From Rhizodiscina lignyota (Eukaryota): DNA of 64,000 bases. The first letter of the stretch is position 1, and each line of letters begins with the position of its first letter. Made by a program: the position numbers and the translations under genes. Location of the stretch: NCBI GenBank assembly GCA_010015805.1, contig ML978121.1, forward strand, positions 124,001 through 188,000, written 5' to 3'. This document shows positions 4,037 through 38,219 of this stretch, one piece after another. Below the pieces are notes generated by a model. The model saw nothing but the letters and a program-made list of their open reading frames with translations, did no database searches and had not been told where the DNA came from.

Positions 4037-4339
4037 TTTGCCTCTAAGCAATTTGCATTGATTGGAGATGGGAAGCAAAAGATGTGATGATTGCGTTTGG
4101 GCTTGCGTTTGGGCTTGCGTTTGATTTTGGGTTTGGTCTGATGGTTGTTTCGGACAAAAGCATCGCAAGGGGAAATGGAAAGAACAAGTATTTTGATAAG
4201 TACTTCCTGCATAATGCTTATATTGGACAGTTTAGAGATACCAACATACAGGGCACAGTGCGGTGCTTCGGGCTTTGGCGAAATGAAAATGAAATGTTCA
4301 GTGATCTGTTCGTTCATTCTCCAATGCTCTCGGGTGAGG

Positions 4340-4816
4340 TCAAGCTCCTTGCTCACCGAAAATAACAGACCTCTCGCCTTCAGTCCAATTCATCTTCAAA
4401 GTCCACTTCTTAATCTTCCACAGCCCATCACTGTCCTTGACCAAGTCCAGATAGTACAACCCGCCAGTGACATAAGCCTTGGCCTCGGGGACATATGCGT
4501 CTTCTGGTCGATAGTGATATGCCATTGCGTTGGCGGTCAAAGACGCTGTATCGGCGCCGTCCTTCAGGTCCACTCGAACATTGGTGATAAAATGCGTCGT
4601 ATGCAAGGGCATGATCTTGCTCATGATGTATTCGGTGATCGTATCCGCGCCCTGGATGGTATGTTCGCCAACGATGACCGAGGTCTCCTTCCCCGGCAAG
4701 ACTGATGACGCGAACAGTTCAGGATCATTGCCGTCTATTCCAGTAACGGAGCGATAGAGACAATCGGCGACGGCCTCACGCGGGCTGAGAGACGGGAGGG
4801 CGATAGTATACGCCAT
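4340..4816 (-). CDS. SnoaL-like / NTF2-fold protein
   Basis: 158-aa intronless ORF with SnoaL_4-type pattern: REAVADCLYR...D..D, TTHFITNVRV, GGLYYLDLVKDSDGLWKIKKW. Confidence 0.85.
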   Translation of the reverse strand: MAYTIALPSLSPREAVADCLYRSVTGIDGNDPELFASSVLPGKETSVIVGEHTIQGADTITEYIMSKIMPLHTTHFITNVRVDLKDGADTASLTANAMAYHYRPEDAYVPEAKAYVTGGLYYLDLVKDSDGLWKIKKWTLKMNWTEGERSVIFGEQGA

Positions 4817-6176: not shown

Positions 6177-6530
6177 TCAATGACCCCAGCTTATGACCTC
6201 TTCGACCGATCGATTCTTCCACGGCTTGCATACCACGTTCACCCTATTTGCAAACCCGTCAAGATCCTCCAGCCCCGCCGACTCTGAGACGCACTTCGCT
6301 GCGTATTGAAGGAGCTTCTTATTCTTGCATGTGCACTCAATGATGTCTTTGTCGCTCTTCTCGTAAATGCAGCTAGTACGGTAGAAGTCCTTTCGAAGGC
6401 ATTTCTGCGCGGAGTCGGTTCCAAAGTTTGGCCAAACGTCCTCGAGGTATGGATCATCGAGATACTCCGGTCGCTTCGCAGCGGCGATGCACAGCGCACT
6501 TGCGCAGAGGAGAATTGTGCTAAAACGCAT
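6177..6530 (-). CDS. Small secreted cysteine-rich protein, CFEM-like, effector candidate
   Basis: 117 aa; signal peptide MRFSTILLCASALCIAAA; six Cys in the mature part including a CxC; TATA-like element about 120 bp upstream. Confidence 0.75.
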   Translation of the reverse strand: MRFSTILLCASALCIAAAKRPEYLDDPYLEDVWPNFGTDSAQKCLRKDFYRTSCIYEKSDKDIIECTCKNKKLLQYAAKCVSESAGLEDLDGFANRVNVVCKPWKNRSVEEVISWGH

Positions 6531-8401: not shown

Positions 8402-9544
8402 ATGTCGACTATCAGGAGCTTGATATATGGGCTGGTGTTGATACTGGCGGCGGCGCTGACTGCCATGGCCGCTCCAGGATATACACCCCAGGGACTTCGA
8501 CCTGGGGTTGAATGCCCAGTGGACCCAGGTAATCTGCCGCCAAATACCAAGCAGGTAGGCGCACTCGTTTGCCCGAGCTAAAGTATACTCGAATTGACAG
8601 AGATCTAGATAACGTACTTCGGGGAGCGTGCCGCCTTCTCACCCGATGGCAAGAAAATAGCGTTCATGGACAAGAGCTACGGCGACGCATTCGAACTGGA
8701 CTTGGAAACGAATCGTATCACACTATTGACACATCCTCAGAACGCCGGCTTCTTGCGTGTCCAGTACCTCCCGAACGGTGACTACGTCCTCATTGGCTCT
8801 CGCAGCTTTGTTGACATCACAACCACACGCGACACAACCCAGGAGCTCTGGGTTCTGAAGCAAGGCGAGATCAACCCGATCCCTCTGAATCACTTTATCG
8901 ATGAAGGTGTGGCAATTTCGCGCAAGAGTGCGAAGATCGCTTGGGCTATCAACCATGACAACTATCCTGGTGTGCTCATCGAAGGAGAAACCCTCATCTA
9001 CACTGCCGACGTCGTGTACGCCAAAAACGGTACTCCTTACCTCGACAATCAGAAGGAAGTGATTCGAGCTTGGTCTCCGGACTGTGTACTAGAACCTCAG
9101 GATTTCCGGAATGATGATAATGAACTCATCTTCATCTGCTACAGACAGATTACGGCCGAGATATCCCTCGCGAATATGCGTGGCATCGACTTGAACACCG
9201 GCAAAATAAGCGTCTACAGAAACGTAACTAACGAGTACAACGAAGTCGAAGGCATTTATCCTGACGGCCAATACGAGTTGGTCGAGTCGAGCAAGGGCCA
9301 GATACATCCTCATGGGGACGATGCAATCGACATTTGGAAGCTCAAAATAGAGCCTCACGGAACGAATTTTCGAAGGGTTACATGTTTCGGATCTAACGTT
9401 AACGGCAAGAGCCCCATCAACAAGGCCAGCAACCCTGTGGTCAGTCCAAATGGGCACACAATTGCTTTCCAGGCCGCGATAGCCGGGGATCCAGCAGGCG
9501 TTGGTTATGGGCTATTCCTCCTTGATCGAAGCGAAACAAGCTAG
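8402..9544 (+). CDS. Secreted TolB-like beta-propeller protein (PD40/WD40-like repeats)
   Basis: Signal peptide from ATG 8402. Intron about 8555-8608 (GTAGGC...CTAG) joins ...PPNTKQ to ITYFGERAAFSPDGKKIAFMDKSY. PD40 motifs FSPDGKKIAF and NPVVSPNGHTIAF. Confidence 0.8.
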
Positions 9545-9551
9545 CTGCTAG

Positions 9552-9785
9552 CACGGGGGTGAAAAAAATAGTTGAGCCCGGTTGGCCGAACGCCCGGAGT
9601 AAGAACGAGTTTTGTTCTTCCGCACGGACGAGAATATCAGTGAAAGCTCGATTAGATATAATACTAGATAGTATTTATCCAAAATTCGCAGCTTCAGCAT
9701 ACATAGTCTATGTTCACTGGCAGACGTGTGTATCTTCGCGGTGGCCTATATTGCAGCCACAACTCAACTATTTTATGACCTACTT
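9552..9785 (+). mobile_element. MITE family A, copy 1 (degenerate TIRs)
   Basis: Left end CACGGGGGTGAAAAAAATAGTTGAGCCC, right end ACTCAACTATTTTATGACCTACTT. Body is colinear with 12733-12930 (shared AACGAGTTTTGTTCTTC, TGAAAGCTCGATTA, TATATTGCAGCCAC). Confidence 0.75.
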
Positions 9786-10133
9786 CCCCAAAATTAACAG
9801 CGATCGAACAGCAAATGCAGACGTCAGATAACCGTTCTGTAGACTGCATTTCTATCCGGTGGCTACGCCGTAAGAATTTCAGAGTGCCTACGGAGAAATT
9901 ACAGACCAGCCAGTTATTCAAGGATTCTATGTACTATTTCGTATACTGTCATATTTCGGTGTCTTCTTCCTGGTGGCACGCTCAACCAGAACCAGAAAAT
10001 TACGTTACCAGTCAGTTAAAGCCTTTAATACTTTGGGCATAGCGAAATGAGTCGAACAGAGGGCTTGGGAGATACGAGTACGATACGCAAGTGATGCTGT
10101 ACTCTTGAGGAACCAGGAGGGATGAGCGACATC

Positions 10134-10290
10134 CAAGTGGGTGACAAAAAAGTTGGCCGCAGCTTTCGGGACAGTGAACAGCATTGGTGTATAGCCACTG
10201 TGAATAACACAAGGTACAGGTTTGTAAATGGCCTGTAATTGTTTAGTGTACTCCGGAGAATATATAACTGAGCTTCCAGAGATACTCTCA
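10134..10290 (-). mobile_element. MITE family A, degenerate partial copy in reverse orientation
   Basis: Starts with CAAGTGGGTGACAAAAAAGTTG (matches the family terminus). GAGCTTCCAGAGATACTCTC matches the reverse complement of GAGAGCGTCTCTGAAAGCTC in the 12.8-kb copy. Confidence 0.6.
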
Positions 10291-11196
10291 ATTGTCGTGA
10301 GGTGTAAGAGCTATTAGTCCTCGTAAGTTACCTACCATCTGGGCTGATGACCCTGATGACCACCAACCTTACAAACGCCCACCGTAGGACACGCTAAATA
10401 TCTCGGGCCGCCACAGCTGAGTTGGCGACTTTATCCCTCCACCCAACTTTCGTCGCGTTCATCGTGACCACTCTCACACCTTCTGCTCCCAGCACCATGC
10501 CGTTCATCTCAGAGACCAAGATAAAGCTCGCTTACTTCGAAGGTATTCGGGTATCGTACTCGAGTTTGCCGTTAGCATCAGCCGTCGAGCATTTCCACGT
10601 ACGAAGGAGCTTGTTTCCGGGGAGCGAACGAGACCTGGAACAGCGTCCCTTTTCCGTCATAACGAGAAGCAAAGCTACTAAGGTAGCTTGGGTAAGCTAC
10701 TCCCTAGTAGCCTCGAATAGAACCTCACCACCTTAAAGAAGCTTCTTGGAAATGCCGAGAGCAAATTTAAAACTTGCCTTCGCAGACTATTCGCTCACTG
10801 GAGACTTTTTCCATCGTACGGAGTAGAGTACCACAATGCGCAATCCAACATGAACCATGAACCAACTGGCTCCCGCTCAACGGGTTCAAGAGACTACATA
10901 GATCTTTTATTGCAGATTTATGCTTAGTATTCCAAGTTCGTTCAAACTTTCGCATTTGGTTTTCCGTTACGGAATTCCCTGCCCTGCTATGGGCATTGGT
11001 CTCCTTAATCGTAAGCTGACCTAACAGTCAAAAGTTTTCTAATCAATCTTGACGTCTTATTAACGAAATAATGTGCTTCGGAGCGCAAGAATGTGGAGTG
11101 CACACGCACTTTACATGTGTTTTAGTGTCCGCTCTTTTATCTGCTTTCCGATTCTCTCTCCGGTCATTACCGCTACTAGTACTTCGGAAAATCAAC

Positions 11197-12732
11197 ATGC
11201 TGTCTTCAAGGCGTTCTCTCATTTTGCTTTTAAGCATCATTAGCTTTGCAGTTGCTAGCAGCAGTATCGATTTGAGTGGGCTACTCCCTCAGCTCTCTCC
11301 ACATGCTTCCGTCACCGATGGATCCAACCTGGCTGCACAGCGATGGACTGAATTCGACTCTCCGACTCCTGGCGCGACTGTAAATGTTGCGACTGAGCAG
11401 GATGTTCTCGTGACGGTAATGGCCGCAACTTTGAATGACGAGTTATACACTGACTTCTCACGTGTTAAGGTCCAATACTGCATTAGAGAGAACATCGAAT
11501 TCCTCTCACAGAATGGGGGACATGGGTGGTCAACTACGATCCATTTGAAACAGAACGGGATTATCATCAATCTAGGAGCTCTCAACGATGTTACTTTCAA
11601 CAAGGCCAAAACCGAAGTCACCGTTCTCGGTGGCGCTCTGGTGTCTGACGTTGTTGCTGCTCAGTTTGCAAATCAAGCCATTGTTGCCACCGGGACTTGC
11701 AATTGCGTTGGCGCTCTCGGATCCGCACTTGGCGGCGGACTCGGAAATCTTCAAGGAAAACTCGGACTCATCTCGGACAGCATAATTTCCCTCAACGTTG
11801 TCACTGCCTCAGGAAAATCCATAACTGTTACCGAAAAGGACTTTGATCTCTGGTGGGCTCTTCGTGGGTCTGCGGCAAACTTCGCCATAGTTACGTCGGT
11901 AATTATGCGATCTCATCCAGTCGAGGCAGCTGGGTTAACTGCTTGGACGGGTCCTCTGATCTTTGCGGAGAACAAGCTGGAAGAACTGGTTCAAGCAGTA
12001 GATGAGCTCTTTTTGAAGCCAGAAATGAGCGTATCTCTAGTATTTGTCTCATCCGGGCCCCCAAACAATACAGCCCAGGTCATCGCCAGCGTCTTCTTCT
12101 ACGGCACAGAAGAAGAGGGAAGGCAAGCATTTGCGCCCCTGTACAAAATCGGTCCCCTTGTAGATGGTACAACTATTCAGCCGGTTACACGTTGGAATGA
12201 CGCCAACAACTCAACTTGCGTTAAAGGAGAACGGAAGCAAACATTTGGCGCAGGTCTCGCGCGCATGGTGCCTGCCACATGGCGTGAAATATACAAGGAG
12301 TTCCAGTCATTTATTCAACTTTCTGGGTCGGCCAACAGCTCTGTCGTGGTCAATGCAGATTCACTAGTCGAGCTCCGCCAGATTCCAGAAGGAAGCTCTT
12401 CTTTTCCATTCCGTAATACAATCAATTTCCATGCCTTCACGGTGGCTTGGTATGCGGATCCAGCCCTCGACCATCGAGCTACAGCGTATGGCTCCAACGT
12501 GCGTGATCTATGGCGTTCAACATCGGGACTAAAAGAGAATAGCACGTCAGTTACCGTATGAAGAGCCATCAAGACCCGAACATGCTAACGTAGAGTCAGA
12601 TACATAAACAACGCTTACGGAGATGAAGCCCTGGAGGTGGTCTACGGGCACAATCTTGAGAGACTGAAAGCTCTGAAGCGGCAGTTCGACCCTTATGGGC
12701 GATTCACTCAGTGGTTCTCTTTAGCTGATTAA
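11197..12732 (+). CDS. Secreted FAD-linked oxidoreductase (berberine-bridge / VAO family)
   Basis: Signal peptide; QNGGHG FAD-His motif and GTCNCVG. In-frame 54-nt intron 11416-11469 and a second intron about 12546-12599 lead to the BBE tail YINNAYGDE...YGHNLERLKALKRQFDP; stop TAA at 12730-12732. Confidence 0.9.
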
Positions 12733-13120: not shown

Positions 13121-13831
13121 TCACTGGTCCTGCTCTCCAGTCTCACCATGCAAGCCACTCGGAGAAACGTCCTCGATCTTATGAGAGTATTTCTCAGGAT
13201 GTGCCTCTCTGTCCGCTTCATGCGCATCATTGCTGTCCGCCTCGCCCAGAAAAGCTGCGTTCTTCGCGTCCTGCGGGTCGATGTCATGCCTGTGCTTTTC
13301 CGGGTTCTCGTTGAAGTCCTGTTCAAAGGCATCATCGCTGTCTGCTTCTCCTAGGAATGCTGCATTTTTGGCGTCAAGGGGAACTTGTTTTCGACCCTCT
13401 ATGTCTTTTTCAACTTCGAAGGCGTCGTTGCTGTCTCCTTCGCCCAAGAATGCAGCATTCTTGCTGTCCATGGCCTCATGGCGGTCGGCAAGAGCATCGC
13501 GGAAAGCCTCATGCCCATCGTTGGAGTCGGCCTCGCCCAGGAAAGCAGCGTACTTTGCATCTTCTTCGGGGGCCTGGTTTTGACCGGATGGAGATGCAGA
13601 CTGGGCAATCGAGTTGACCACGGGATTGCTGGAATCAGCTGGAGGAGATTGGGTAGTGCCAGGCTGAAATAGAGCAGGTCCTGGGTGGAAGAATCTCTGG
13701 TTGAGGACACTCTGCTTGTTCAGAGAATATGCCGTGATGATCGCGGCTGGGCCGGCCTTTGTTGGTAGAGCCGAGAGCGCTGGCCTGGCAGCAGAAGAGA
13801 GTGCCAGTGAGAATGCTCGAAAGGACGCCAT
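13121..13831 (-). CDS. Protein with a mitochondrial-type presequence and four acidic repeats (D[AS]K[NY]AAFLGE[AG]DS[ND]D)
   Basis: 236-aa intronless ORF. N-terminus is Ser/Ala/Arg-rich and lacks acidic residues (…QRFFH…); four near-identical repeats follow. Confidence 0.8.
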   Translation of the reverse strand: MASFRAFSLALSSAARPALSALPTKAGPAAIITAYSLNKQSVLNQRFFHPGPALFQPGTTQSPPADSSNPVVNSIAQSASPSGQNQAPEEDAKYAAFLGEADSNDGHEAFRDALADRHEAMDSKNAAFLGEGDSNDAFEVEKDIEGRKQVPLDAKNAAFLGEADSDDAFEQDFNENPEKHRHDIDPQDAKNAAFLGEADSNDAHEADREAHPEKYSHKIEDVSPSGLHGETGEQDQ

Positions 13832-15360
13832 TATGTCAATTGAAATTTCATAGCCTGGTGTCTCGAAGTTGAAGAAACGTCCAATTTACCTTTCTCGACA
13901 CCATCTCGATCATACTGAGGGGGTTGCTACCCCACATGACGCTTTGCATTCCCATTTTGGCGATACGGAGGTACATCCGCTGAGTAACAGTCGATCATTG
14001 TATTTGCATGTGATGCGCTTCGAACGCGTGTATAAAATTGGGAAAGGGATCAACTTGGACATTTCCAGCATCCAATGGACAGAATGTGGGAGTCCGACAG
14101 TGTCACCGTCGGCTCTGCGTGCCAATAAGTTGGCAATTGTAGATGAATTCTGTCGCTCTAATTAATGGTAAGTACGGTGTCATCGTATTTCGTCTAAGAT
14201 TAATAAATGTCTCTGTAGTATAGAGTGATTTCGATGGACGAGGCTCGTGGCAATCCAGTGCCTTCGTGAGCGGACTGTCTCCCTGACGAATCACGTCTGG
14301 ATGCCGCAGAAACCTGAAAACTCTTTCGACGGCGCCTTGTAGCGCTAAAGATGATTCCATCTATGCCAAAGGTCAAGGTCGATTTTCAATAGACAAAATG
14401 GAAGAAAGTCTTCTCGAAGAAGGCTGGGACATGGTGATAACGCGGCGATGAGATCCGAAGAACGATCGGAGCAGAAAAGAAGTTCTACCATTCGTATCCA
14501 TTGCCGCTAAACCCAATTCGGGCCACGTCAGTCCACAAGATAGGAGTATCGCCAGGATACAACAGACGTTGCCGCTCTCCCGTGCTCCATCAACCTTCAT
14601 TCTCACAATCGCATCACTTACAATGAGCCTGAGCGCCATGGAGTTCTGGAAACGCTGCAGCAGAACGCGTCAGTCCATGCAACGCGTTGGTCGTTGAAAC
14701 ATCGCTTCGCCCAGTCTACTCCGTAGGAAGTATGTACTCCGTACACTCGTGCGGCATCGGAAATATCAATCCAACGTCGTCGATCGTGATTGGCCGAAGA
14801 TTTGCGGCGTTTGGAATGTGGCGCACGTTGAAATGATACCCGTTTGGGAATAGCACGAGAGTCTGCGTCTTCACAGCTGGACCAGCAGCTATGGATACAC
14901 AAACCACATGCGCTATACCGAGAGCAGTTGCATTCCTCCACGCCGCGCGCTAAACATGTGTGTTTAAAATGCACAATACGAAGGCTGTCGCAAGCAAGAT
15001 TCCCATCCTTCCCTTTAGCGGCTCTACTTGCGAGAAGCAACCTCTGACGATGAGTGATTTCCACACGTATGGTGCGAAAGATAAATACACACCTATCGCC
15101 ACGTCCATTTAATGAGGCAGCTACTGCCTGAGGTAGGATCGGCGTTGTGCTTAAATGCTCTCAACTCCGTCCGTTGGAACCCAAATATTTGACGTGTAGG
15201 AGGCTACAAACAGATTGCTCCAATTCTCATCTTTTCTTCAGCTTCCACAGCTGAAAATCGTCTTGAATACCTTCAACATTCCTTCTTGTCGTTAAATTAT
15301 AATAGTCGCCTTTCAATTGCTCTCGTGAGCCTTGCGCCGTTCTCCCTTCCAGAGAAAATC

Positions 15361-17371
15361 ATGTATCTCGCCTACAAATACGCCAAGAAGAAATCAAGGG
15401 AGCGAAAGGAAGCGAAAGCAGCAGAGGCTGCCAAATCACCTTCGACAGATGCGCAACCACATGGCCAACAGGATGCGGTAGTGAGCGACGAAATCGAGGC
15501 TGCAGCACCCTCAAAAGTCCACGCAGCTGGAACAAACGACGAAAAGACAAAGCAGCCATCCCCTGGAGACCATGAGATGAGTGAAGAAGACCGCATCCAG
15601 AAGAAGAAAAGAAGAAACTATCGGCTTAAAATCATATTTGGCCTCGCCGCACCCTTTGCCCTTCAAGCCCTCGACACTACCATAGTAGCATCAGCTCTGC
15701 CATTCATTGCGAAAGACTTTGGTACGAAGACCTGTACTTCTATATTCTCAAACATGATTGCTAATCCTATCCACAGGCGAAGTCAAGCAACTCAATTGGA
15801 TCATCTCCGCCTTCAATCTCACCTCGGCCGCCTTTCTCCCATTCTGGGCCCAAATCGCCGACATATTCGGACGCCTCACTACCATTCTCGCATCCATCGT
15901 GGTGGTACTGATCGGCTCGGCTATCTGTACCGGGGCGCCTACTTCAGACTTTGGAGTTCTGCTACTCGGTCGTGGCATTCAGGGAGTTGGCACCGCAGGC
16001 GTTAGCATATGCGTCCGTATCATCCTCGCCGACAAAGTCAGTCTCAAGGAATATGCCCTCCAATGGACTCTTTTCAGCTTGGTCTCTGCTGTCGCCTTTA
16101 CTATTGGCCCTGTCATTGGTGGATATTTAACTGAGGCGACTTGGCGCTGGGTCTTTGCGATAAATCTACCAGTCGCCGCTTTTGCCATTGTGGTAGTACT
16201 ACTTGTCCTGCGCAAAGACTTGTTGGGCCCGCAACCACTACCTCAGATCGAAGGCCGCGATGTATCCACTCGGCACGGACGCTTCCTCCTGCGAATCATG
16301 ACCATTGATTACGGTGGTCAGCTCCTGTTTCTTTGGGGACTTGGACTATTGATCCTCGCGTTGACCTGGGCGGGCGGCTCGTTCGCATGGGACTCGGCAC
16401 ACGTGCTCAGTCCGCTGGTCGTTGGAGCCATACTATCCGTTATCTGGCTATTGTATGAGTTCATGATGGCCCCTCCGCGCTTCATGTCCCGCGTCTTCCC
16501 TATTCAACGCGCCATGATACCATGGGAACTGCTCTCACAACGCGATATTGGCCTGCTATTCCTCATTAACTTTGGCTCCGGAATGGCCATGTTTGCATTA
16601 CTATATTTCATGGATCTCTACTTTGCTCTTGTAGAGGGCAAAAGCGCCAGCCAAGGAGGAATTGCATTGCTCTATTTCCTACCGGGTCTCGGAGGTATGT
16701 TTATCCAAACGCTCGCAAAAGACGAGATATGGTGCTGACTGCGTCTCTTTTCAACAGTGGGTAGCTACATGGCCATGTTCTTCACCAACGTCTGGCCACG
16801 GCAAACGCAGCCGGCACTTCTCTTTGGTAGTTTGACGTCAGCAATTGGTATAACGGTTCTGATATGGGCTATCAACGTTGGCAAGGACAGTGTTATATAC
16901 GGTATGATGGCGCTGACGGGTCACGGTATCGGTATGCGTATGGTCCCCGGATCACTACATGGTCTCGGCTACTTCCCGGCCCTGACGGCTGCCATCTCAT
17001 TTCTCAGCTCATTCGCCTTGCCCTTTGGCGGCACCGTGTCCCTCACACTCATGAGTACCGTTTTCAACAACGAATCTGGCGCGCAGCACACCGACCCCAG
17101 GCGCGGCATTCGATTTGCCTTCATTGCGCTGACTCCGTTCATGTGGGTGTGCGTCGTGCTCTCGGCATTACTCGGCAACGTATGGATCCAGAAGCATGGC
17201 GCGCACGAGGTCGTCAACGGGGTATATCTCTGGAGTCTGCTCACTAGGAAGAAGCTGGTCAGGGAGCGAAGAATGAGAGGGGAAGTTGGTGGTGGCAATG
17301 ATGGTGCCATAGGGGAGCGTGCGGCGGGAGTGGCGGACGAGGAGAATCAAGCAAAGGCAGATGCTGCATAA
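15361..17371 (+). CDS. MFS drug/H+ antiporter (DHA2-type, 14 TM)
   Basis: Exons about 15361-15721, 15776-16694, 16758-17371; motifs ALDTTIVASALP, ADIFGR, GRGIQGVG, IGPVIGGYL..WRWVFAINLP. Confidence 0.92.
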
Positions 17372-20614: not shown

Positions 20615-21659
20615 GGTGAAATGCTTGGTGAATCTTGGGGTGATTGAGATATTGAGGGAGATCTGAGATGAAAATAAGAGGAAGTGTTCGAAAACCCTTA
20701 CGACTGTTGGAAGACCGAGGTGAGGACTGGAGAGAGACGGGAACCTTGATCAAGGCAGCAGCAGCCGGTGTGACGTGATGTTTTCGAGTGGAGGAAGGCA
20801 CGCGCTGAAGTTGCGCCTTCCCGATGCGCGAAACCACCAAAACGCAAAGCTCCGCAGTGATGGGCCGGAAACATGAGATGGAAAGCATAAGGAGGTAAAT
20901 AGAGATTTCTCATGCGTGCATCATGTTTATAAACGCATTTCATACTGCGAAGAAACCATATTAGTGCTTGCAAGTGTTGTATCTGGGGCCCGTGCGTATG
21001 GTGTTGCCGCGGCGCTTGGAGTTTGTATTCAATTCGCGTATTTTCTAGTACTCACTCACGGGAAATGGTCATTTAGTGCAGTGGCTATGCGAGAGCACTA
21101 TGAAGACCGCTGCACTCAGGGAGTTACTAACCTTGATACAGGTCCATTCAACGAACAGCTCGGAGAGAAGCTACATAAGGAGCTTGCTTCTGTGCTCACA
21201 AGCCCTCTTCGTAACTAGTATGCGTTAAAGGAACTAGCAATGCCGTGAGTTCGCGTCTTTTTTGCACTCCTGTTCAAATCCCAGACCTTTTTTTCCATAT
21301 ATCTTCGTGGACGAGCAGTTTCGCTCTTGTCGATGCTCTGCAAATCTCAAGCAACGCATGGATGTCTCGATGACACTGACACTGCTTTCGAGCCTTTTTT
21401 TGCATTTATAGACTTAACTAAAGCGCAAAAACATCACACTCCGACCCTCTGCTCGCGTTTAGATACAAACAGGAACATCGGCTACGTACAAAACCATACT
21501 TTCGTTTTTACAACCTGGGCCGTCCTTTACGATTTCTTCATTTCTGCCGCATAGTCACGAGTGCACGACTTGTGATGGGATTGTGTCGCTTGAATCTCGG
21601 TAGCTCAGTATCTATGGGTGCATACTCTGGTTAACGGATCTCTTTCAGGCCGATGCATC

Positions 21660-22364
21660 TCAGCAACTTCCAAATCCAACCATGTTCAACGTGTTGATCT
21701 CCTCTGTCGGATCGCCTTTCATAAACACGTCGCCGCAATGGACAGTGTGATTATAGATCCTCAGATACCCCTCCAAGTTTCGTCCAGACTCGATAAACCG
21801 ATGCATCTTCCGCCAGGTATACGCACAATGCGTAGCGTGCTCCCTCTGGGTTGTCCAAAACGGATCGCGATACTCCAGGTTTTGCAGCTCGGACTCTGGA
21901 ATCTCCGCTGTACCCTCCTTGTCCGCCCAATACGTCCATGGCCCTTCAGCGCGGAAAGCGTTCAGCAGCTCCAAGTCCTGACATTCGCGCGGGAGCCATC
22001 CCGGAGCCAGAACATCGAAGACGCAGCCTCGTTCCTTGGCTTCTGCTACCGTACTTCCGCAGAAGTAAGTGTCGACGGCGTGGGACTCGTATATGGCTTT
22101 GTCCAGGTGCGGAGGAGCTGGTCGTTGTCCCACTCGCTGTGCAAGCTGCAAGTGTGTAATCCAACCCGCTGAGTAGCTGCAAATGGCAATCATGATGGCG
22201 ACGCAGCTGGCACCTACAGCTACGAGCCACTTTCTTCTAGTACCTTTCTTGAACTCTGAATAGATCCGGTGTGATGAAGGATCCGCAAGGGTGTCTTCGT
22301 ATAATGGAGGTGTTGAATCCTCTGTCTGTGGAACAGCATTGTATCCTTTCTTTGTCGATGACAT
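21660..22364 (-). CDS. Divergent double-HXXHC type II membrane protein (UstYa/DUF3328-like oxidase)
   Basis: 234 aa from ATG 22364, intronless; one N-terminal TM segment (WLVAVGASCVAIMIAICSY). Contains CGSTVAEAKERGCVFD..W.P..C and two HXXHC motifs, HATHC and HTVHC. Confidence 0.8.
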   Translation of the reverse strand: MSSTKKGYNAVPQTEDSTPPLYEDTLADPSSHRIYSEFKKGTRRKWLVAVGASCVAIMIAICSYSAGWITHLQLAQRVGQRPAPPHLDKAIYESHAVDTYFCGSTVAEAKERGCVFDVLAPGWLPRECQDLELLNAFRAEGPWTYWADKEGTAEIPESELQNLEYRDPFWTTQREHATHCAYTWRKMHRFIESGRNLEGYLRIYNHTVHCGDVFMKGDPTEEINTLNMVGFGSC

Positions 22365-22900
22365 CTTGAGTCTGAACGAATATTGTCTTTGGGCTTCAGT
22401 GCCGCAAGTATAGGATTTAGAAGAGGTGGTTTGGAGTGGTACCCAGGAGTTAGAATGCAGATACTGATACCCAAAGAAGGTGCCCAGCTCTCGCAAGAGA
22501 TACGGTGATCGTACGACAAACACCGTCTGATTAGGAACCTCAAACTCCTTTTAGAAAGACGGTTGATAATGAGACGTGATATTGAAACATTGCTCCCTCC
22601 GTGCCTATGACTGCATGCCCTTCGTTGATCACCTCGCATAACATACCTTCTGCGGTGATCTTGCGGCCGGCGGCCGGGTTAGAACTTGCCAGGGCACTTT
22701 CCCGCTCTGCAGTCAGCTTATTTCATTCATTGTCTTTGTTGTTTAACCGTGAGACATGATATCTTTGCGAAGATCATGGTATACTCCGCAACACAGGATT
22801 GAGAAACACGCTAATGCCAGCATGGGTTCTGCTGTAGTAGTGAGTTTAGCGGTGAAGGCCAAACTTATGGAATAATGCTCCAGAGCTGAGAGCCGCTGAA

Positions 22901-22908
22901 TATATAAA
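22901..22908 (+). promoter_or_regulatory. TATA box of the small peptide gene
   Basis: TATATAAA about 110 bp upstream of ATG 23013, in the 650-bp divergent intergenic region. Confidence 0.55.
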
Positions 22909-23012
22909 GCAATGTACCATGCCAAGCGAGATATCACGGACAAGTCGCAAGAGCCAGATTCCTCCAGCTTGTTACAGACACAGCATCCTCCTTTGCTCAA
23001 AAACCTTTGAAA

Positions 23013-23211
23013 ATGAAGTCCTTCATTGCTCTCTTCGTCGTTCTTCTCGGCGCGTCATTTGTTATGGCCAACCCTATCCCAAACCCAACCCCTGAAGACC
23101 TCGAGGTGAGTTCCCTAACCACAGTACACAATTTCCCTCTGAAGTTTAATCTCTGCATAGGAGGATATCCAGCAGCAGTGGTTCATCAAGAAGTACGGTG
23201 ACAAGGCATAG
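23013..23211 (+). CDS. Small secreted peptide, putative RiPP precursor (47 aa: MKSFIALFVVLLGASFVMA-NPIPNPTPEDLE-EDIQQQWFIKKYGDKA)
   Basis: Exon 1 23013-23105, phase-0 intron 23106-23160 (GTGAGT...CATAG), exon 2 23161-23211 ending in TAG. Clear signal peptide and acidic ED leader; lies among three HXXHC genes. The CDS is well supported; the precursor role is inferred. Confidence 0.75.
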
Positions 23212-23826
23212 ACGGGTTAGATATCCTCAAAGCTTGTCGTTTTACTCCCCCTCTGATGGAGACATACAGCTTTCAGAGGATATCATCAGGGCAGCATCAA
23301 AGGACAAAAGGCATTTCAAGCGTTAGATGACATTGACGCTCATTGGTGTGGTCTCAACGCCTGCCTAGGGTTGCGGAGGTTGCTGTATGTAGCATTTAAT
23401 GCGAAGCCAATCGTAGGCGCGGTCCGTGAAAAGAATTATCCGATCTGCGTAACTTCTCAGTGTGAAGGTGACAATGTAGTACGAGTGTTGAAATAGGAAG
23501 TGCCGATACGAATTACCTGAATGGACTTAATCCCAGAAGATAGAACCAATCATTCTGTCAAAGCTTTCGGTGCAACAGGTTTTGTGCTCGAAAGCACTAT
23601 GGTGCACACCAGCGTCACCATGCAAGTACTCTCTTCGATTCGGTTATTGGTATTTGCACGCTGGCTTAACCAGCGGTACTGGTAGCTTAGAAAGGGTAAT
23701 GAAGGAGGAGGTCGAAGTTCCGAGGGCTAACCAAATTAGGTGAGAGAGCTTACATGGTGCGTGACAGCCTTCTCGAGCGAAGTACCTGTCGCGCGAAAGC
23801 TACAGTACCACACTCTGCATATATTC

Positions 23827-24768
23827 TCATGTACAATGTTGTTCCACTATTGGATCCGTTTCATGCATATAAGATGCTCTTTGGGTCCACATTTTACGAT
23901 GCCTTCGGAATATGTGAATCGAGCAGATCAAAAGTGATCCTGCAAGCACTGCAAGTGCCCAATTGGCGGTAACAGCGAGCCCTGGACTTGGTGTAGCATG
24001 GACATCATGACTTGAACTGGGCGCGACTGCCTGGGTGAGCGTTGTTTCGGAAATGCCCCAGGGTCTGTATGGGCGAGATATCTGGGGGATAGTCGCCAGC
24101 TCTTGGTCCAGACTCGACTCCGCTGAAGCCCTCAGGTTCGCTTGGAGCGTGCCGTGAAAGTTGTGGGCCTCAATTCTGGCACTATCATCGAAGGAGCCCC
24201 CGAAATTCTGATCGGAATTGATAGCCCAGAGGATGGGCTGACTGTCAGACTCTGTATCGACAGTTTGAGGAGAAAAGTCGAGCAAGGCCCACGTGCTGCA
24301 GTTGTAACAGACCAGCTGAACTTCCAACACTTTAGCCGGAGCGGTGACGGATGCCTCATCGTCGAAATCGGAAAACTTTGCGCTCAGTATGTCGATCCGC
24401 GGAATCGAAAAGTAGCCCAAGGCAAACTTTGCCGAGGGATCCACCAGCGCATGCCCCATACCTGCACGTACAACTGTGGTAGCAATTTGAGAATGAGAAT
24501 ACGGGTCTCCGAAAATGACGAACATAAGCGATCCATGCATCTGAGGGCCGAGGCCGATACCGATCCAGCCTGCGGAGGAAGCGTTCAGGCGCTCTGTGAT
24601 GATCGTCGTGTATAGATCAACTGACGGAAATGCTGTTGTGTAATTCTTGAAGGTTGAAATTGCAAGGCAGAATGCATAATTTGCTGCTACATCTTCTTTG
24701 CAAAACTGCAATGGTTTCGAAAAGGCGGTAACGGTGAAGCAAAGGATCCATAGTAACCGAATCAACAT
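23827..24768 (-). CDS. Secreted/membrane-anchored cellobiose-dehydrogenase-type cytochrome (DOMON, heme b) domain protein
   Basis: Signal peptide from ATG 24768. GWIGIGLGPQMHGSLMFV (candidate Met heme ligand), CYNCSTW, QPILWA, IEAHNFHG (candidate His ligand); C-terminal hydrophobic segment WALAVLAGSLLICSIHIF followed by RRHRK. Confidence 0.82.
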   Translation of the reverse strand: MLIRLLWILCFTVTAFSKPLQFCKEDVAANYAFCLAISTFKNYTTAFPSVDLYTTIITERLNASSAGWIGIGLGPQMHGSLMFVIFGDPYSHSQIATTVVRAGMGHALVDPSAKFALGYFSIPRIDILSAKFSDFDDEASVTAPAKVLEVQLVCYNCSTWALLDFSPQTVDTESDSQPILWAINSDQNFGGSFDDSARIEAHNFHGTLQANLRASAESSLDQELATIPQISRPYRPWGISETTLTQAVAPSSSHDVHATPSPGLAVTANWALAVLAGSLLICSIHIFRRHRKMWTQRASYMHETDPIVEQHCT

Positions 24769-24986
24769 TTGGGGCAATGACGTGAAAAGGGAAGTGATAC
24801 AAACCGGCTTCAGGGAAATATGCTTAAATACGAAGCTCAGCTCGCCGACCTTGAAGATTAGTCACTAAAGTAAGACGACATACATAAGCGGCCCCTGGCT
24901 GCCTGGCATGGGTCGTTCCCCAGGTTCCCGATACGGTTATAGGTCATCTTCAGGATTCCGCAGCTACAGAAGACATGGGAAGCTAT

Positions 24987-26022
24987 CTACGGATGCAACT
25001 CGGTCACAATGTGATCTAAAGTCCAGGCATGGATGTCCCAGAAGTTCCGGCATTTGTGCATTGTCTTGAAATCCATGTGCGAGCCCCAATCCTCCTCTAC
25101 AGTATGAACCAGTACTGGCGTTACGTCCGCCGTGCACATCAGGTTCAGTCTTAGCGTATCAATACAATGATCTATTGGAGTACAGGAAGTCAGTAATCCA
25201 GACAGATCGAGCAGACATGGGACATACCCAAATGGTCGTGGAAGCCCTTTACGTGCTCTGGCTCAAACGTATCCTTATAGTAGCCAAAATAGTCAAAGAA
25301 CTCTTCCCGATAGATTCCAAGGCGAATATAATACTGTACACCGACATTGGGTCAGTAATACTTTTGTGTGCTTCCGAGGAAATAGCAAATACCCACAAGA
25401 CAATGCAACTGATGAAATACCTCCACTGCGCCTACAAGCTCATCGGGTCTGTCTTCTGCTACAGGCCTCCAACTTGCATTTGCTGCGATCCCTGGGGGAT
25501 TTTCTGGTTTACCGAGAGCAGCAAGTTTGTCTCGAGGAACTGAGATGCCGATGACTCCCATTTCACAATCAGCACCGGGAGAAACATTAAGATCTTTGAG
25601 ACTCACGAGCACCAGTTAGATGTCTCCACGCTGCTTCCGTCTCGTTGGTTGGTGGCCCTCTGTAGGGAGATGGATGTCCAAAATCGCCAGGAATATTGGA
25701 AGAGGAGTAACGAATAATATCGGCATCAAGAAGTGGAGCTGTGAAGTTGGTTAGCAAGAAGTTTGAAGTATCGTGAATATGTCGTACACCAAGGCGAAAG
25801 CTTGCGGGAGCATTCTTCATCTGTTGGTTGCGCTTGTTGTACCCATATGAGTCTCCACGATGAGGCTAGAAGCAACAGAAGTTGCAAGCCATAAACAGCA
25901 CAAGTCCACCTTGATGGCAGCGGCGACGCAAATATGCTCCATAAGGGCCTCCGCGATCTACTCGCGATTGAAAAGTCCGCGAGCCTGAGTTTCTCGCTCT
26001 GTACTTTGATGAAGCTCGCCAT
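24987..26022 (-). CDS. DUF3328 / UstYa-family oxidase (paralogue A, 5 exons)
   Basis: Manually spliced: TM segment, SPWSPLLDA, SPYRGPPTNETEAAW, VEVFHQLHCL, YYIRL, HLDHCIDTLRLNLMCTADVTP, DFKTMHKCRNFWDI; stop TAG at 24987-24989. Confidence 0.92.
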
Positions 26023-26432
26023 CAGGCTTGGCTGGGTTGAGAAGGTCCCATGTATCGGACTTTGCGAAGATGAGTGGAATTGAATTTTGGGTTGAATTTC
26101 GCTTGATGTCTGGGGTGATTTTAGCGCGGCCTTTTCTTCCGCAAACAAACAGAAAGGCAGGGTTCAGTCAGTTCGAAAGCATCGCCCTTCTTACTTGGAT
26201 CCGTCCTTACGTGAGACGCTTATCCACCTCGGAAGACTACCTGTTAGAAAGTACACAACGATCTAGCGATAGCGATGATGGCGGTTAGGATGTGGAGAAA
26301 TTTGGAATCCTTAGATGCAGGTGCGGACATGCGGACTGCAGAGAGATTTAAAATCTTCCTAAGCAGGGAATTGTGCCATTCTGGTCCGGGCCGCTTAATC
26401 GACATTGAAAGAGGGAATTTCCGTCACGCAAA

Positions 26433-27421
26433 CTACCTGATAGCGATATGATTGAACACCCATTCGCGGATATCCCAGAAGTTTCTGCATGTGTGTTTCG
26501 TATCGAAGTCTGGAGTCACTCCGCCCCAAGCTTCGGCATCATTGATTAACAGCACAGGTGTGACATCAGAGACGCACATCAGGTTGATCCTGATGATCTC
26601 GACGCAGTGATCTGTACTTCTGTCTTAGTCGTGCACCGGACCGGTTGGAGATAGCTGATGAACTTACCAAGATGCATTTTCTTCATTTTCTCGTCAAGCT
26701 CTGGCTCTTCCTGTATTGGCCACTCGTGAAAGCGTTCGAAGTACTCATCCCGGTAAAAGTGGAGTCTCAGAGTGCTCTAGATCAGCTCATCAGCGATTCA
26801 AATGGGGCCAAGAAAGGACATGAAACTTGCAAGGCAGTGGAGTTGGTGGAACATTTCAGTCAGTCCCGCAACTGAGTCCGGTCTTGATTCGGTGGGGGCT
26901 TCTCTCCAGTCGCCCTCTCTTGACTTATTCAAAAGGTCTAGCTTGTTTCGGGGAATGGCAATTGAAGGGTCTAAGGAAACGTGTTAGTCTTCAAGGTGCT
27001 ATGTTGGTAGAACAAGACCATACTGTCCCAAATGTCCTTCCAAGCGGCCTCCGTCTCTGGAGTTGGAGGCCCACTCCATTTTGAATCCGCGGGGAACGGA
27101 TTGGAGATGACGGCGCTTTCGTATTTGATGATTCCGGAGTCGATGATCGGGGCTATATCTGTTAAAACTGTATAAACTGAGGACACTGCACAACGTACAG
27201 TACGGTGATAATTGTCTTGCGCATTGTGTGTCCGTTGGCTGGTGGAGAAAAGAGATGAGGAGTAGTAGTAGTGATATCGACAGTAGGCCACTTTGCGATG
27301 TCCAGAACGGCCAGTATGCCCATCGAGAATTCGTAGCGTTTGATATCTCCCCGCTCAAGAAGCCAGTATTTTCAGGCACTTCCTCAAGGTCATCGCGGGC
27401 GGTGTCCGATGATGAGTTCAT
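26433..27421 (-). CDS. DUF3328 / UstYa-family oxidase (paralogue B, 5 exons, one GC-AG intron)
   Basis: Manually spliced: TM segment, SPYSPIIDS, WSGPPTPETEAAW, EMFHQLHCL, STLRL, HLDHCVEIIRINLMCVSDVTP, DFDTKHTCRNFWDIREW; stop TAG at 26433-26435. Confidence 0.92.
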
Positions 27422-27871
27422 TGTTAACGTCTGTATGTTCAATAAACTCGGAAGAGCAATTGTGAAAGTGATTGTTGGAGAAAAGTCAGGCTGAGTCGAA
27501 GTCGACATTATCCGCGTGCTGGGACTTTATCATGATGGAAAGACTTGCTATGTCAGCATAAGCAGTGCAACGTGATATCCCACGGCAAGTGACTTGGTGC
27601 GCCGTAAAATATCGTCGTATCAGCTCTCAGAGTGTCTAGGCGTATTAGATCGAAACTATGCCAACGAGATGATAGCTTGAGGATCGCTTCACAGAGCGAA
27701 AAGGCACGGCTCTTGATGAACAAAAGCCATGCAATCGAACTTATAATCTCAGTCTATTACATGAATGGCCAGGTGGCTATAATTGCAATTGTATTCCGTA
27801 ACGTTGCGTGAACGACAGCGCATGGAAAGTTCCCGTTGTCTCGGTAGCGACCCGCGGAGTGGGCAGACAAA

Positions 27872-32267: not shown

Positions 32268-34583
32268 ATGTTGTCTCTCACGTTCCTTTCAATATTAGCG
32301 AATATAGCAGGCAGCACTTTCGCAGCATCGACATTCTCCCCAGCTCGACCTCCCGCATTACCATTGGCAGTAAAATCGCCTTATCTCAATACTTGGTTGT
32401 ACGCTGGTAGTGACGACTCTGGAAATGGAGGCTATCTGGCTGGCAAGTGGCCGCAACATTGGGGGTAAGCATTCGAGCTTTCTGGACTCTACAATGCGCA
32501 GACGTAGCTGACATCTCATAGGAGCGGTGTGACAGGATGGACCGGGATGATTCGTGTGGACGGTGATACCTACGTCTGGATGGGTGATCCTCAAGTGGGC
32601 GCGACGACAGTCAATCAAACTTCATACACCTACACTTCGACAAAGAGCATCTTCGAAATGGACGTGGCTGGTAAAGTCCAGATGAACATCACTTTCACAT
32701 CGCCGGTCTATCCGAATGATATGAAGAGGCAATCCCTGACTTTTTCATACCTCAATGTCGACGTTGAATCAACCGATGGCTCATCACATGATGTGCAGCT
32801 GTACACGGACATATCTGCTGGTAAGCTTCTACTGACAATTGAAAGGACGCCAGAATTGGCTGACATGGGGCGCAGAATGGGTGTCTGGGGAAAACACTGT
32901 AAATGCACAATGGGATTATGCTACTTCCGGCGGCTTGTCATACCACAAGGTCTGGCGACAAACGCAGCTCCTGTTCAGCGAAAACATGGTCAATAATCAA
33001 GGTCTTATGGCTGATTGGGGTTACTGGTACTATGCGACGAACACCAGCGATAGCCTCAGTTATCTACAGGATTCTGATGCAACTCGAAATGCATTCAAGA
33101 ACGATGGAAAGCTCGGCAATAAGCAGAACAAAACGTTCCGCCCCATCAACGACGATTGGCCCGTCTTCGGTTACGCTGTTGATCTGGGCTCGGTGAAGGG
33201 TACCGCGCCGAGCCAGCTCTTTACACTCGGCTACACGCAAGAAAAGGCTGTGCAGTACAACACTACAGATGGCTACCTGGAGCTCGACTCTCTGTGGACG
33301 TCATATTTCGATGACGAGGTTTCTGCGGTAGGCCTTCAAGAATATACTCGTTCCTAGCTCAAACTGATTATTATGACAGCTCTCGTTCTTCCACAATGAC
33401 TATGCTACCGCAACGAGTATGTCCAACGATCTGGACAGCAAGATCTCATCCGACTCGAAAGCCGCTGCTGGACAAAACTACCTCACCGTTACCTCACTGT
33501 CTCTTCGTCAGGCATTTGCAGCAATCACTCCTGCCATCCGCTCCTCTGGAAAGACATATTTCTTCCTGAAGGAGATTTCGTCGAACGGCAACACGAACAC
33601 GGTGGATGTGATCTTCCCCATGCATCCCATTCTCTTGTATCTGAACCCGCAGATTCTCAAGATGTTGTTAGACCCGCTTTATGAGAACCAGGAGAGCCAC
33701 GCGTATCCAAACAGCTATGCGGAGCACGATCTTGGCGCTCACTTCCCGAACGCGACCGGCCATCCTGCTGGTGACGATGAAATGATGCCTGTCGAAGAAT
33801 GTGGAAACATGCTCATCATGACCCTCGCCTATTCCCAAAGTACTGGTGACAACAGCTACCTGTCCGATCACTATGCCAAGATGAAGCAGTGGGTCGAGTA
33901 CCTCGTCGAAGACTCGTTGATCCCGGCAGACCAGCTCAGCACTGACGACTTCGCCGGACATATCGCCAACCAGACTAATCTAGCGCTCAAGGGCATTATT
34001 GGCATCGGCGCAATGGCGGAAATCGCCAATATTACGGACAACTCCGCCGATTCGAGCAACTACTCTTCAATCTCGAAAGACTATATCAGCAAGTGGCAAG
34101 ACCTTGGCATTGCAAAGAGCGCGAGCCCGCCGCACACGACTCTCCAGTATGGCAATGACTCAACCCACGGGCTTCTCTACAACATTTATGGCGACAAGCT
34201 GCTTAAGCTTAACCTCGTTCCGCAGAGCGTCTACGACATGCAGAGCAAGTTTTATCCAACTGTTGAGAACAAGTATGGTGTCCCACTCGATACCAGAAGT
34301 ACGCAAACAAAGGGTAAGTTGCTGCACTGAGAACCCCACGCTAGCTCGAGAAGGTGCTGACAGACGAACAGGCGACTGGGAAATGTTCACCGCTGCAACA
34401 TGCGACAGCTCCACGCGCGACATGTTCATCAAAGATCTTGCTACATGGATCAACGAAACTCCCACAGGGCGTCCGTTGACCGATTTGTACGATACCAACA
34501 CAGGCGGCTGGCCGACAACCCAATTCACGGCACGGCCAGTCATGGGAGGAACCTACGCGCTCCTAGCGCTCAACTCAAAGTAG
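32268..34583 (+). CDS. gtaA: Secreted glutaminase A (GtaA family)
   Basis: STFSPARPPALPLAVKSPYLNTW, FLKEISSNGNTNTVDVIFP, MPVEECGNMLIM, QLSTDDFAG..ANQTNLALKGIIGI; five GT-AG introns. Confidence 0.93.
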
Positions 34584-35329: not shown

Positions 35330-36934
35330 TCAAGGGAACACCTTGAACCCTCCCGGCAAAGCTGATTGAAAGAATCCGTTCAGATCATACTTCTTGCTCA
35401 CAGCCTGCAGCCTCGCCTTCTCCGCCTTCCCGTAGCTCGCAATCGGGTCCTGTGACCTGTCCGCATAGTTGAGATACTGGTACGGAATGTAAAGGCCTTT
35501 CTGGCGACACAAATCTTCCTGCTTGACGACGATATCTTCCATCCCCTTCTGCACGGTATCGTCGTCTGCTGCGTTTGCGTACGCTGCCGTGAGCACAGTG
35601 ACGACGAAGTCCGTCTCTCCGGCGGGCAGTCCGAGCGAGCTCTTTCCGGTTGAGACGGGCTGTGGCTGGATGAGCAGGACGAGTTGCAGGTTCTCAATGT
35701 GCGCCAGAGCCTCTGTACCGTCTTCCCAGATCTTGAAGAGGTCGGAGTAGAAGTCGGCGTCTCCATTTCGGAAGGAGAACACAAGGTCGATCGCGCTACA
35801 TGATATAATGAGTCGCGGTCCATGTCTTGACTCGTAATTCCAACGGCACTTACCGTGAAGCACCAGGAGGCAATGATCCACTCGCTTCGGTCACAAGAGA
35901 TGTCACATTCGTCAGGCGCAGAGTGTTTGCGATGGACGGAATAGCTGTAAAAGGCCTGTAGATCGGAGGATTCACGACCGGCTTGATGTAATAAAGGTCA
36001 CCGCCGACTGCATATACTTGCCCGGGGTTCTGGAAGACGAGCGCCATACCCATATCCGCCGAATCGTCGAAATTCTTGGGGTCCATGAAGCTGCTGAAAG
36101 CTTTGGCGTTCGCCGCTAGGATCTCGGGCGTATAGTTGAACGCAAGGCCGCCACCCCACATACCTTCAATCTCCCAAGTGGGAGCTTCAATTCTCGTTAC
36201 GATTCCATAGTTGTTTGAGCCGCCTTTGAGTGCAAGCCATAGATCTGGATAAGAGCGTTCGTTGACCTCAAGGATCTGTCCGGTGGCGTCGACAAGCTGA
36301 TAATTGTAGATATTCTCACAAGCCCAGCCCTGTCGCCTGGAGAGGTAGGAGATTCCACCTGCACTCGTCAGTCTCTTGAGACGGAAATTCACAGCAGATT
36401 CAAGATACCTCCAGTCGAGAACCCTCCCACTCCAATTCCCGGGACCCTTCCTCCCATGACAGTGAGATTGTACTTGTCGAGCACCGGGTAAATCTCACTC
36501 CAGATCCCGCCACTTCCAAGTGAGACTATCTTCCTGTCCTCGCTGAGCTGTAAGGAGTTCATCGAGCCCATATCGACGGTGATGCCACCTTGGATGTTCG
36601 CTGCCCCTGTCCAGATCATGTGTCCGCCGCTCCTGAGTGCGAATTGCGGACCACGATACGAGCCGTAGCCATGACCAGGATTTATCAACTTGATGAATCG
36701 GGAGACATCTTCAGCACAGGTGGGAGAGAAAACGCATCCGGGATGCAATTGGCGCTCCTGGCCAGAGTAATAGGAAGAGATGGAGTCGTTGTAAGTCGAA
36801 CTACCAGGATACGAGACATGGCCAACTTTTGACGCCAGGAGCTTGCAATATGAAGCTATATCTACAACGCTAGTGGCCGAAGTGGCTAAAACGAACGACG
36901 CGATGAGAAAGGGAACAGAGTGTGAACTCAACAT
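35330..36934 (-). CDS. Secreted FAD-binding oxidoreductase (FAD_binding_4 / VAO family)
   Basis: Signal peptide; FALRSGGH, GGRVPGIGVGG, DLWLALKGGSNNYGIVT, YLNYADRSQDPI..LQAVSKKYD; introns near 36360-36408 and 35790-35854. Confidence 0.9.
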
Positions 36935-38219
36935 GGTGAATCTGAAAAGTCACCTCGTCACCACCGAGGAGCAGGAGGCTACAAAAGTTAAAGAAAGGAT
37001 CCTGCCGCATCTTGAAGTACGTACGAGGCCCGCATGACTCGTCCAATGGCCAGGAACACGGGATTGACGTTGGCCAGCTCGCCAAAACTAAGCAGTTAGA
37101 TTGCGGAGCAGCCATGGGGTTGTTGGTGAGTCCCCAGTTAATCGCAGAGGTTCCCCATAATTGGGATGTAACCTGAGGCTCCTCTGGGTGCTTCCACCAA
37201 TGATATCGTGCGGGGATTGAGCCTCCAAGTACGCGAGCTACCTTAAGGTCGTATAGGGCCGTTTATGGTTCCTGGCGCTGGCAATAGTGAAATAGAAGAG
37301 GGTGCTTTGCAGTTTTCCATGTCAAAAGTAGAGCCAGTGATCGCTGCTGTTGGGATCGTCTCCGGCTTCACCACATCGAGTCGTATCTTGCGTTGAGGGA
37401 CCTCGGTTCGAGCGTGACGAAAAAGCTAGCCATAGCTTTCAAGACACTGAACAGCTCAGGAGTGTAGCTTTTGTTACCAATTAAACATGCAACGTTTCAA
37501 CGGTGTGCAATTGCAATATACGCTGCAAAGAACCTAAAACCAAACTTTCGCTCTTAGCTGGAAGAGACCTTTGGTACTTGCTGGACAAAATTTTCTATGC
37601 CTTGTCTTCCTGCATGACTAGTGCATCGAGCGCCCGCAAATAATCAAATCGAATCTCGACCATTAGGCAGAAGCTGTGGACTGGGTGACTGTGTTGAGTC
37701 GAGGCGAAGCTTCGTCCACGTGTACAAGTTGCAAGTTGAGCTCCTGCAAAAAATCGAATCGAAGCTCGAACTCGAAACCAAAGCCGGAAGTTGAATAGTT
37801 ACTAAAAGGACATAGCCAAGCTCGGCGCGTAATACGAGCTCGCTAGAGGTGAGGTATTGAAGCGTACGATGAAGATGAGGCATCGATTCGTATCAGGTTG
37901 CGTGGAAGGGAAATATTGTTGATCATCAGCCACAGTCAAAGCCTCAGGCAACCTGTTCACGTGCTTTGATATTGAGATGTGTGGCTGTGCACAGAAAATT
38001 CTCGTCATCGATTGGTGAGTCACTCCTGTCCACGAGCGAACATCGGACGGATGACTCTCACAACAGGATGGTGTGACTTGTCGTTCCAGTCACGAAAGAA
38101 AACCGTAAGTATAAGTAGCCTATCAGTCCTATTCCGTCCTTCTATTCTCTCTTATTTCTACATGGGCGAAGAGAAAGCATTCTTCTACCCTTCCCTCGTC
38201 TTTCTCCTTCGGCGTTACA

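Follow-up and report, generated by a model that had tools for sequence, protein, structure and literature searches.

P0001, a minus-strand gene at positions 23827..24768 of the 64,000-nucleotide stretch of Rhizodiscina lignyota DNA analysed here (the window), was identified as a CDH-type (DOMON) cytochrome gene that appears to have lost the b561 part of its family and that lies inside a RiPP-like cluster with DUF3328 genes. We tentatively read its product, with a little less than even confidence, as a lumenal electron carrier or copper reductase working for its DUF3328 RiPP cluster. Full-length relatives that carry the b561 core are the better test case for such a partner and the stronger witness, P0001 the weaker one.

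The open reading frame (24768-23827, minus strand) is a single exon without an intron and encodes 313 aa, arranged as a signal peptide, a CDH-type (DOMON) cytochrome b domain, a Ser/Thr/Pro linker, a membrane helix and a short basic tail. An earlier note on this DNA had described a cytochrome domain with candidate Met and His heme ligands, a signal peptide, one C-terminal transmembrane segment and neither a flavin nor a b561 domain, and these features were borne out. The Pfam search that it proposed returned CDH-cyt (PF16010, residues 43-217, E 1.3e-10) as the sole match, at 41.8 bits against a curated cut-off of 27. The AF2 model (pLDDT 82.7) consists of a beta-sandwich and one helix at 262-299. 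Using this model, Foldseek gave 8 matches at E<=0.001, every one a CDH or PDH structure, with a TM by target of 0.65-0.66 to isolated cytochrome domains and 14-18% identity to the solved CDH/PDH structures. The predicted axial heme ligands are Met77 (24538..24540, minus strand) and His202 (24163..24165, minus strand), whose columns hold M and H in 75/76 rows each and which a profile alignment matches to the corresponding Met and His in P. chrysosporium CDH (1d7c). Hydropathy, on which the predicted signal peptide rests, shows a hydrophobic N-terminal stretch and one segment from about residue 263 followed by a basic run; together with the AF2 helix it defines the single membrane helix (residues ~263-288; 23905..23982, minus strand).

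A GMC flavin domain was not found in P0001, in which PF16010 alone matched and the frame ends at 313 aa. Nor was a b561 domain found, with one helix only and a b561 HMM score of 1.3 bits, where shuffled sequences reach 5.0. A b561 remnant was looked for downstream by tblastn and by HMM and was not found, which speaks against a hidden intron or frameshift leading into b561. A separately assembled contig from a public run that may be the origin of this DNA was identical to the window over 21500-27500, with no difference, and the short form is therefore not an assembly slip. P0001 is confirmed as a real gene for a cytochrome of the Met/His heme-b type, with heme binding predicted from sequence and model.

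An exhaustive homologue search gave 116 proteins, P0001 included; a word-index search with P0001 returned only P0001 itself. Among the 84 proteins whose cytochrome domain is whole, 64 also have b561; the 20 others include P0001, fragments and apparently mis-spliced models, with P0040 as another clean single-helix form. In a second set, centred on P0018, all 112 whole-domain proteins carry b561 (112/112). The closest relative, P0002, has 40% identity to P0001 and a model with five C-terminal membrane helices. Because most relatives, P0002 included, have this b561-type membrane core, P0001 is read as a derivative of the CYBDOM family (DOMON plus b561, the architecture of most of its relatives) that has lost the core. 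The lumenal DOMON heme domain of a CYBDOM is present in P0001 and the four-His b561 helical core is absent. The description as a stand-alone cytochrome holds as far as b561 is missing here, but by these sequence comparisons the stand-alone form is a derived state, that of a truncated family descendant and not of a complete CYBDOM. The remaining helix may descend either from b561 helix 1 or from the last helix. Its assignment to b561 helix 1 with a His to Pro change came from the MAFFT placement only, with an HMM score below those of the shuffles, and was set aside. P0040 stands on another branch, and the end of its sequence is similar to the final helix and acidic tail of the full-length proteins, which suggests an internal loss of the b561 core.

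The prevalence of b561 in both sets is what would be expected of a relic, a CYBDOM that came with this cluster or formerly served it and that, having lost the b561 core, now lies idle or decays. The long branch of P0001 points the same way (1.06, three times the 0.32 of its sister P0002), as does a domain identity of <=44% to any relative. Against this, the signal, the heme-ligand residues, both Cys pairs and the anchored C-terminus are all intact in an open frame, and a second single-helix form, P0040, occurs on a separate branch. Furthermore, P0001 keeps 32/39 highly conserved columns (82%) versus 14/93 variable ones (15%), a pattern which indicates that selection has acted on its fold; seven relatives keep 85-100% of the conserved columns. 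A relic is considered unlikely, although it is the strongest of the alternatives to a carrier serving the cluster.

The cluster has five genes in the order B, A, P0001, precursor and C, in a genome of 33.4 Mb on 33 contigs; the spliced gene models are predictions built from coordinates. DUF3328 gene A (24987..26022, minus strand) has a five-exon model of 271 aa with two HxxHC motifs and PF11807 matches on its exons, and gene B (26433..27421, minus strand) a five-exon model of 259 aa with two HxxHC motifs and 46% identity to A. The stop of gene A ends at 24987 and the ATG of P0001 follows after 218 bp on the same strand, in agreement with the gap of about 220 bp reported before. A candidate single-core RiPP precursor lies at 23013..23211 (plus strand) and encodes 47 aa with one 55-bp intron. 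It is single copy, with one DNA match in the whole genome, and combines a hydrophobic N-terminus and an acidic leader with a second exon that holds Trp, Phe, Tyr and a Lys-Lys pair. We infer that this secreted peptide serves as the RiPP precursor. It is of a type that repeat-based mining would miss.

Gene C (21660..22364, minus strand) is a single exon that encodes a membrane-anchored protein with two HxxHC motifs and no PF11807 match. Its family, HxxHC proteins missed by PF11807, has 11 other matches in the genome, many of them inside DUF3328 loci; a word-index search with gene C gave one other match, and members in Atlas clusters provide a weak UstYa lead. Heme, the cytochrome domain (18-246) and two copies of the gene C protein (88-234) were modelled as a complex from single sequences; the score of 0.10, with the mark at 0.34, counts neither for nor against an interaction. 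The region from 20 to 29 kb of the window shows no gene for a peptidase, tyrosinase or transporter, and the regions upstream of B, A, the cytochrome and the precursor have no 8-mer common to three or more of them. At 4-11 kb the cluster is flanked by a FAD-binding oxidoreductase (11053-12561, plus strand), an MFS transporter (15193-17371, plus strand), a glutaminase GtaA (32508-34583, plus strand) and a second probable FAD-binding oxidoreductase below the cut-off (35330-36949, minus strand). Elsewhere in the window, a frame at 13121-13885 (minus strand) encodes a protein in which an N-terminus rich in Arg, Ser and Ala is followed by about five Ala/Asp-rich repeats, with no Pfam match, and the gene at 61904-63280 (minus strand) appears flavohemoglobin-like by eye.

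A PF11807 scan of the genome gave 76 exon matches in 36 DUF3328 loci, a large expansion. Positions no more than 5 kb from a DUF3328 match make up about 1.2% of the genome, and the chance that one among the 4 CDH-cyt genes falls that close is about 5%, so that the closeness of P0001 to DUF3328 is by itself suggestive and not decisive alone. Each of the three other CDH-cyt genes of the genome has b561, and the nearest DUF3328 match is 43-617 kb away from them. No CDH-cyt gene was found in 45 stretches of 10 kb that take in the 35 remaining DUF3328 loci, two C-type loci and the locus of the fat storage-inducing transmembrane (FIT) gene, in a scan whose controls recovered all four known CDH-cyt genes. 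An adjacent partner is therefore not needed for most DUF3328 genes, and the other loci may use unlinked full-length proteins or small-molecule reductants. An S53 peptidase gene was observed about 5-7 kb from three of the DUF3328 loci (C1:2.89 Mb, C13:0.34 Mb and C24:0.11 Mb). Further small secreted candidate precursors were seen at own-genome loci L013, L012, L017, L022/L114 and L115, with clear repeats flanked by Lys-Arg/Arg-Arg in that of L013.

The careful tree was built from 53 chosen rows of 107 domains, the others being omitted to save time. In it, P0001 is the sister of P0002 (support 99/97) inside a wider 41-row clade (100/98) and falls outside a 26-row group (94/88) that holds L041, L080 and the Colletotrichum protein. 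A HxHH motif at the ligand His, which we infer to be a plausible copper site beside the heme, occurs in 97/115 proteins of the second set and 16/41 in the linked tree group, with 0/21 in the group of P0001 and 0/39 among outgroup rows. P0001 has no HxHH; at the place of this motif in the cluster-linked sub-group it carries a single additional His, at 205. P0001 lies outside the DUF3328-linked CYBDOM sub-group by both tree placement and HxHH. L049 has HxHH yet no DUF3328 within 10 kb.

A motif scan of a metagenome collection gave 62 loci in 41 groups, from which L045, L053, L054, L058, L068, L090 and L094 were dropped as non-homologues. DUF3328 genes occur in 1/12 homologous locus groups of at least 7 kb, namely at L041. 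This locus (1-11950) contains two DUF3328 genes together with a P450, an S53 peptidase, a full-length cytochrome+b561 gene and a repeat precursor whose cores contain Tyr, and the cytochrome+b561 gene stands between the S53 peptidase and the precursor. The same kind of complete-looking RiPP cluster was also observed at L059 and L074. The short loci L080 and L083 show the head-to-head S53 pairing of L041, in L083 by inspection. By tree group, DUF3328 was found at 1/2 loci in the group of L041, at 0/4 informative loci in the group of P0001 (L057 shows one side only) and at 0/6 more distant loci, five of which were placed by a low profile score and not by the tree. The earlier note had called the cytochrome a candidate dedicated partner, and the word dedicated is not borne out: among the loci covered, none of the 4 others in the nearest branch is linked to DUF3328, and the stretches covered at the other 35 loci of the genome hold no such gene. 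Genes A and B are 25-27% identical to the DUF3328 proteins of L041, no closer than to own-genome paralogues, and the precursor is of another build, which leaves a separate recruitment or a chance neighbour. Given the low identity, the clade seems to have been recruited independently into the P0001 cluster.

As a chance neighbour, P0001 would be a displaced AA8 ferric/cupric reductase-type cytochrome, comparable to the Serpula IR proteins or to DOMON-only proteins, for metal uptake or extracellular redox chemistry, which we regard as improbable. The 0/4 count for its branch and the chance proximity of about 5% are in its favour, and stand-alone CDH-type iron reductases have been described in the part of the literature covered. 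Members of the P0001 group were observed near a FIT gene in two lineages (L050 9665-12791 and L063 780-11494). The FIT gene of the window genome has no CYBDOM within 10 kb, and P0001 could therefore be a displaced FIT-side gene. P0001 lies, however, inside the cluster and not beside it, directly behind gene A on the same strand, and the wider clade does occur in DUF3328 clusters.

The latter point was followed up by accession, with the distance between accession numbers as a proxy for gene distance. Accessions were looked up for 30 relatives, the last ten chosen as older NCBI genomes, and 28 accession prefixes were compared with the available part of Table S2 of Umemura 2020 (PMC7329392), which lists repeat precursors only and in which the presence of the strains was confirmed for part of them. 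In those entries, 9/28 accessions, from 6/14 genera, lie <=10 numbers from a precursor flagged 'DUF3328 in vicinity'. The close pairs, with the second number shortened, are EFQ35642/37, KGO69682/84, OAA82016/19, PFH57166/62, EQL38622/31-32, OAT05519/09-10, EER44640/46, EGE77290/84 and KLJ07389/83. The other 19 have no flagged precursor nearby in those entries; one, from Sordaria, has an unflagged precursor 5 numbers away and 18 have none. Against an expected rate per genus of about 0.3-6%, p is 1e-4 or less. Eight of the nine positives belong to precursor type 13 (49 precursors in 19 genera, 46 of them flagged, in the part covered), and they therefore probably represent a single ancient cluster family that Eurotiomycetes and Sordariomycetes have retained; when these positives are counted as one, the test weakens to p 0.0005-0.12. 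The comparison of genome neighbours proposed in the earlier note is in this way partly favourable, with six genera near a DUF3328-flagged precursor but mostly through one homologous cluster family. The precursor of L041 may be of type 13 as well. In the text and supplements of the KEP survey, figures aside, CDH-cyt, b561 and DOMON are not named in the parts covered (PMC7329392). The full-length relatives recur in similar clusters, and the family may therefore be the missing electron supply of DUF3328. As a guess, the Aspergillus relative may belong to the asperigimycin cluster.

DUF3328 enzymes introduce cross-links, hydroxylations and halogenations into many fungal peptides. The characterised member CctR acts as a dimer that depends on copper and O2 and whose catalytic domain is predicted to be lumenal; reductants stimulate it, a Cu(I) chelator blocks it, and an accessory protein for electron transfer or Cu(I) delivery has been hypothesised (Huang 2025, PMC12435403). 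These enzymes require Cu(I) although the lumen in which they reside is oxidising, and the question of their physiological reductant is raised explicitly in the same work (Huang 2025, PMC12435403). The prediction that the heme domain faces the same lumenal compartment as the oxidase domains agrees with this topology (Huang 2025, PMC12435403). In the proposed mechanism, P0001 folds, by sequence and model, into a putative heme-b cytochrome with Met and His as ligands, on the lumenal side of the ER/Golgi membrane, and would be co-localised with the DUF3328 enzymes, whose copper sites, as published for CctR, would face the same lumen and need Cu(I) (PMC12435403). Its reduced heme would pass single electrons to the DUF3328 copper or reduce Cu(II) for loading. 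Since b561 is gone, P0001 would keep the last relay only and require an electron donor in trans; its re-reduction might come from a small-molecule reductant in the lumen or from any of the genome's three full-length cytochrome+b561 proteins, which is the weakest step.

In the full-length relatives the whole path would lie in one polypeptide, from a cytosolic reductant through two b561 hemes and the DOMON heme to copper. In the sections covered of the work on the plant CYBDOM HYP1, cytosolic ascorbate electrons pass via the hemes to ferric and cupric acceptors (PMC10784544). A full-length fungal CYBDOM in a DUF3328 cluster fits the predicted accessory-protein gap well. By extension, the fungal cytochrome+b561 clade might be a 'P450-reductase equivalent' for DUF3328, kept in one widespread RiPP family and with a minimal, membrane-tethered shuttle without b561 recruited a second time here, a conjecture that we hold somewhat more loosely than the role of P0001 itself. 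The clade would carry cytosolic electrons across the Golgi/vacuole membrane to the lumenal heme, and the His cluster beside this heme would reduce or hand over copper. The idea of a redox partner thus gains from the accessory protein hypothesised by Huang 2025 and from the recurrence of relatives in DUF3328/RiPP clusters, and loses by the 0/4 of the P0001 branch. Also against P0001 as a carrier are the lack of an electron source of its own without b561, its long branch with slightly fewer conserved columns than the seven relatives, and its position outside the linked group, without HxHH.

Another job in the cluster, as an electron sink for oxidative cross-linking, a heme catalyst on the peptide or a protection against copper/ROS, would suit the loss of b561, which removes the reducing input and fits an acceptor or buffer, and also His106, which is conserved in 70/76 rows and stands where CDH has Tyr. 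Six-coordinate hemes with Met/His ligation typically carry electrons and are not catalysts, which counts against the catalyst role. We give these roles little credence, as the characterised DUF3328 enzyme CctR needs electrons in, not out (PMC12435403).

For the preferred reading of P0001 as a carrier or copper reductase, literature linking DUF3328/UstYa with cytochrome b561 was not found in the partial coverage searched, so that an earlier mention is possible. The RiPP literature examined, epichloecyclin included and figures aside, has no mention of b561, and no paper on DUF3328, copper and ascorbate was found in the literature searched. For DUF3328 and cellobiose dehydrogenase, the part of the literature covered holds one transcriptome paper. 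The CYBDOM-type family provides a concrete reductant candidate with named clusters for direct testing. If the proposal is true, it would supply a missing component for heterologous expression and biocatalysis of DUF3328 enzymes and a new marker gene for RiPP cluster mining.

Among known systems, the CYBDOM proteins (Arabidopsis HYP1/CRR; fungal CDH-cyt + b561) share with P0001 the signal peptide, the Met/His DOMON site and the membrane anchor, whereas P0001 has one helix and no b561 hemes, and it belongs to a RiPP cluster, where copper enzymes are the putative acceptors, instead of to iron homeostasis. The CDH cytochrome domain and AA8 iron reductases (1d7c, 4qi3; Serpula IR1/IR2) share fold and ligands; unlike them, P0001 has no flavin or PQQ domain and no CBM, and is membrane-anchored. 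CDH cytochrome reduces LPMO copper, and the analogy drawn from this by the earlier note holds for fold and ligands, but CYBDOM/cytochrome b561 is the better model because P0001 is a truncated member of that family, with the membrane-crossing part lost. AIR12 is GPI-anchored, and we know of no link from it to copper enzymes. In the part of the source covered, this plant protein is, like P0001, a heme-binding DOMON without b561 (PMC10784544). Dikaritin (ustiloxin/asperipin-type) clusters resemble the window in having a secreted precursor beside HxxHC DUF3328 genes, here A and B with paired HxxHC; unlike in those clusters, the 47-aa secreted candidate has one core, with the Lys-Lys pair and no repeats. 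In secretory vesicles, cytochrome b561 and ascorbate supply the peptide-amidating and dopamine monooxygenases. This system works as proposed here, in that electrons cross a membrane to serve peptide-maturing copper oxygenases in the lumen, and differs in using ascorbate as the shuttle and in having unclustered genes. P0001 is a known kind of protein in a new variant and a new setting, the DUF3328 RiPP cluster.
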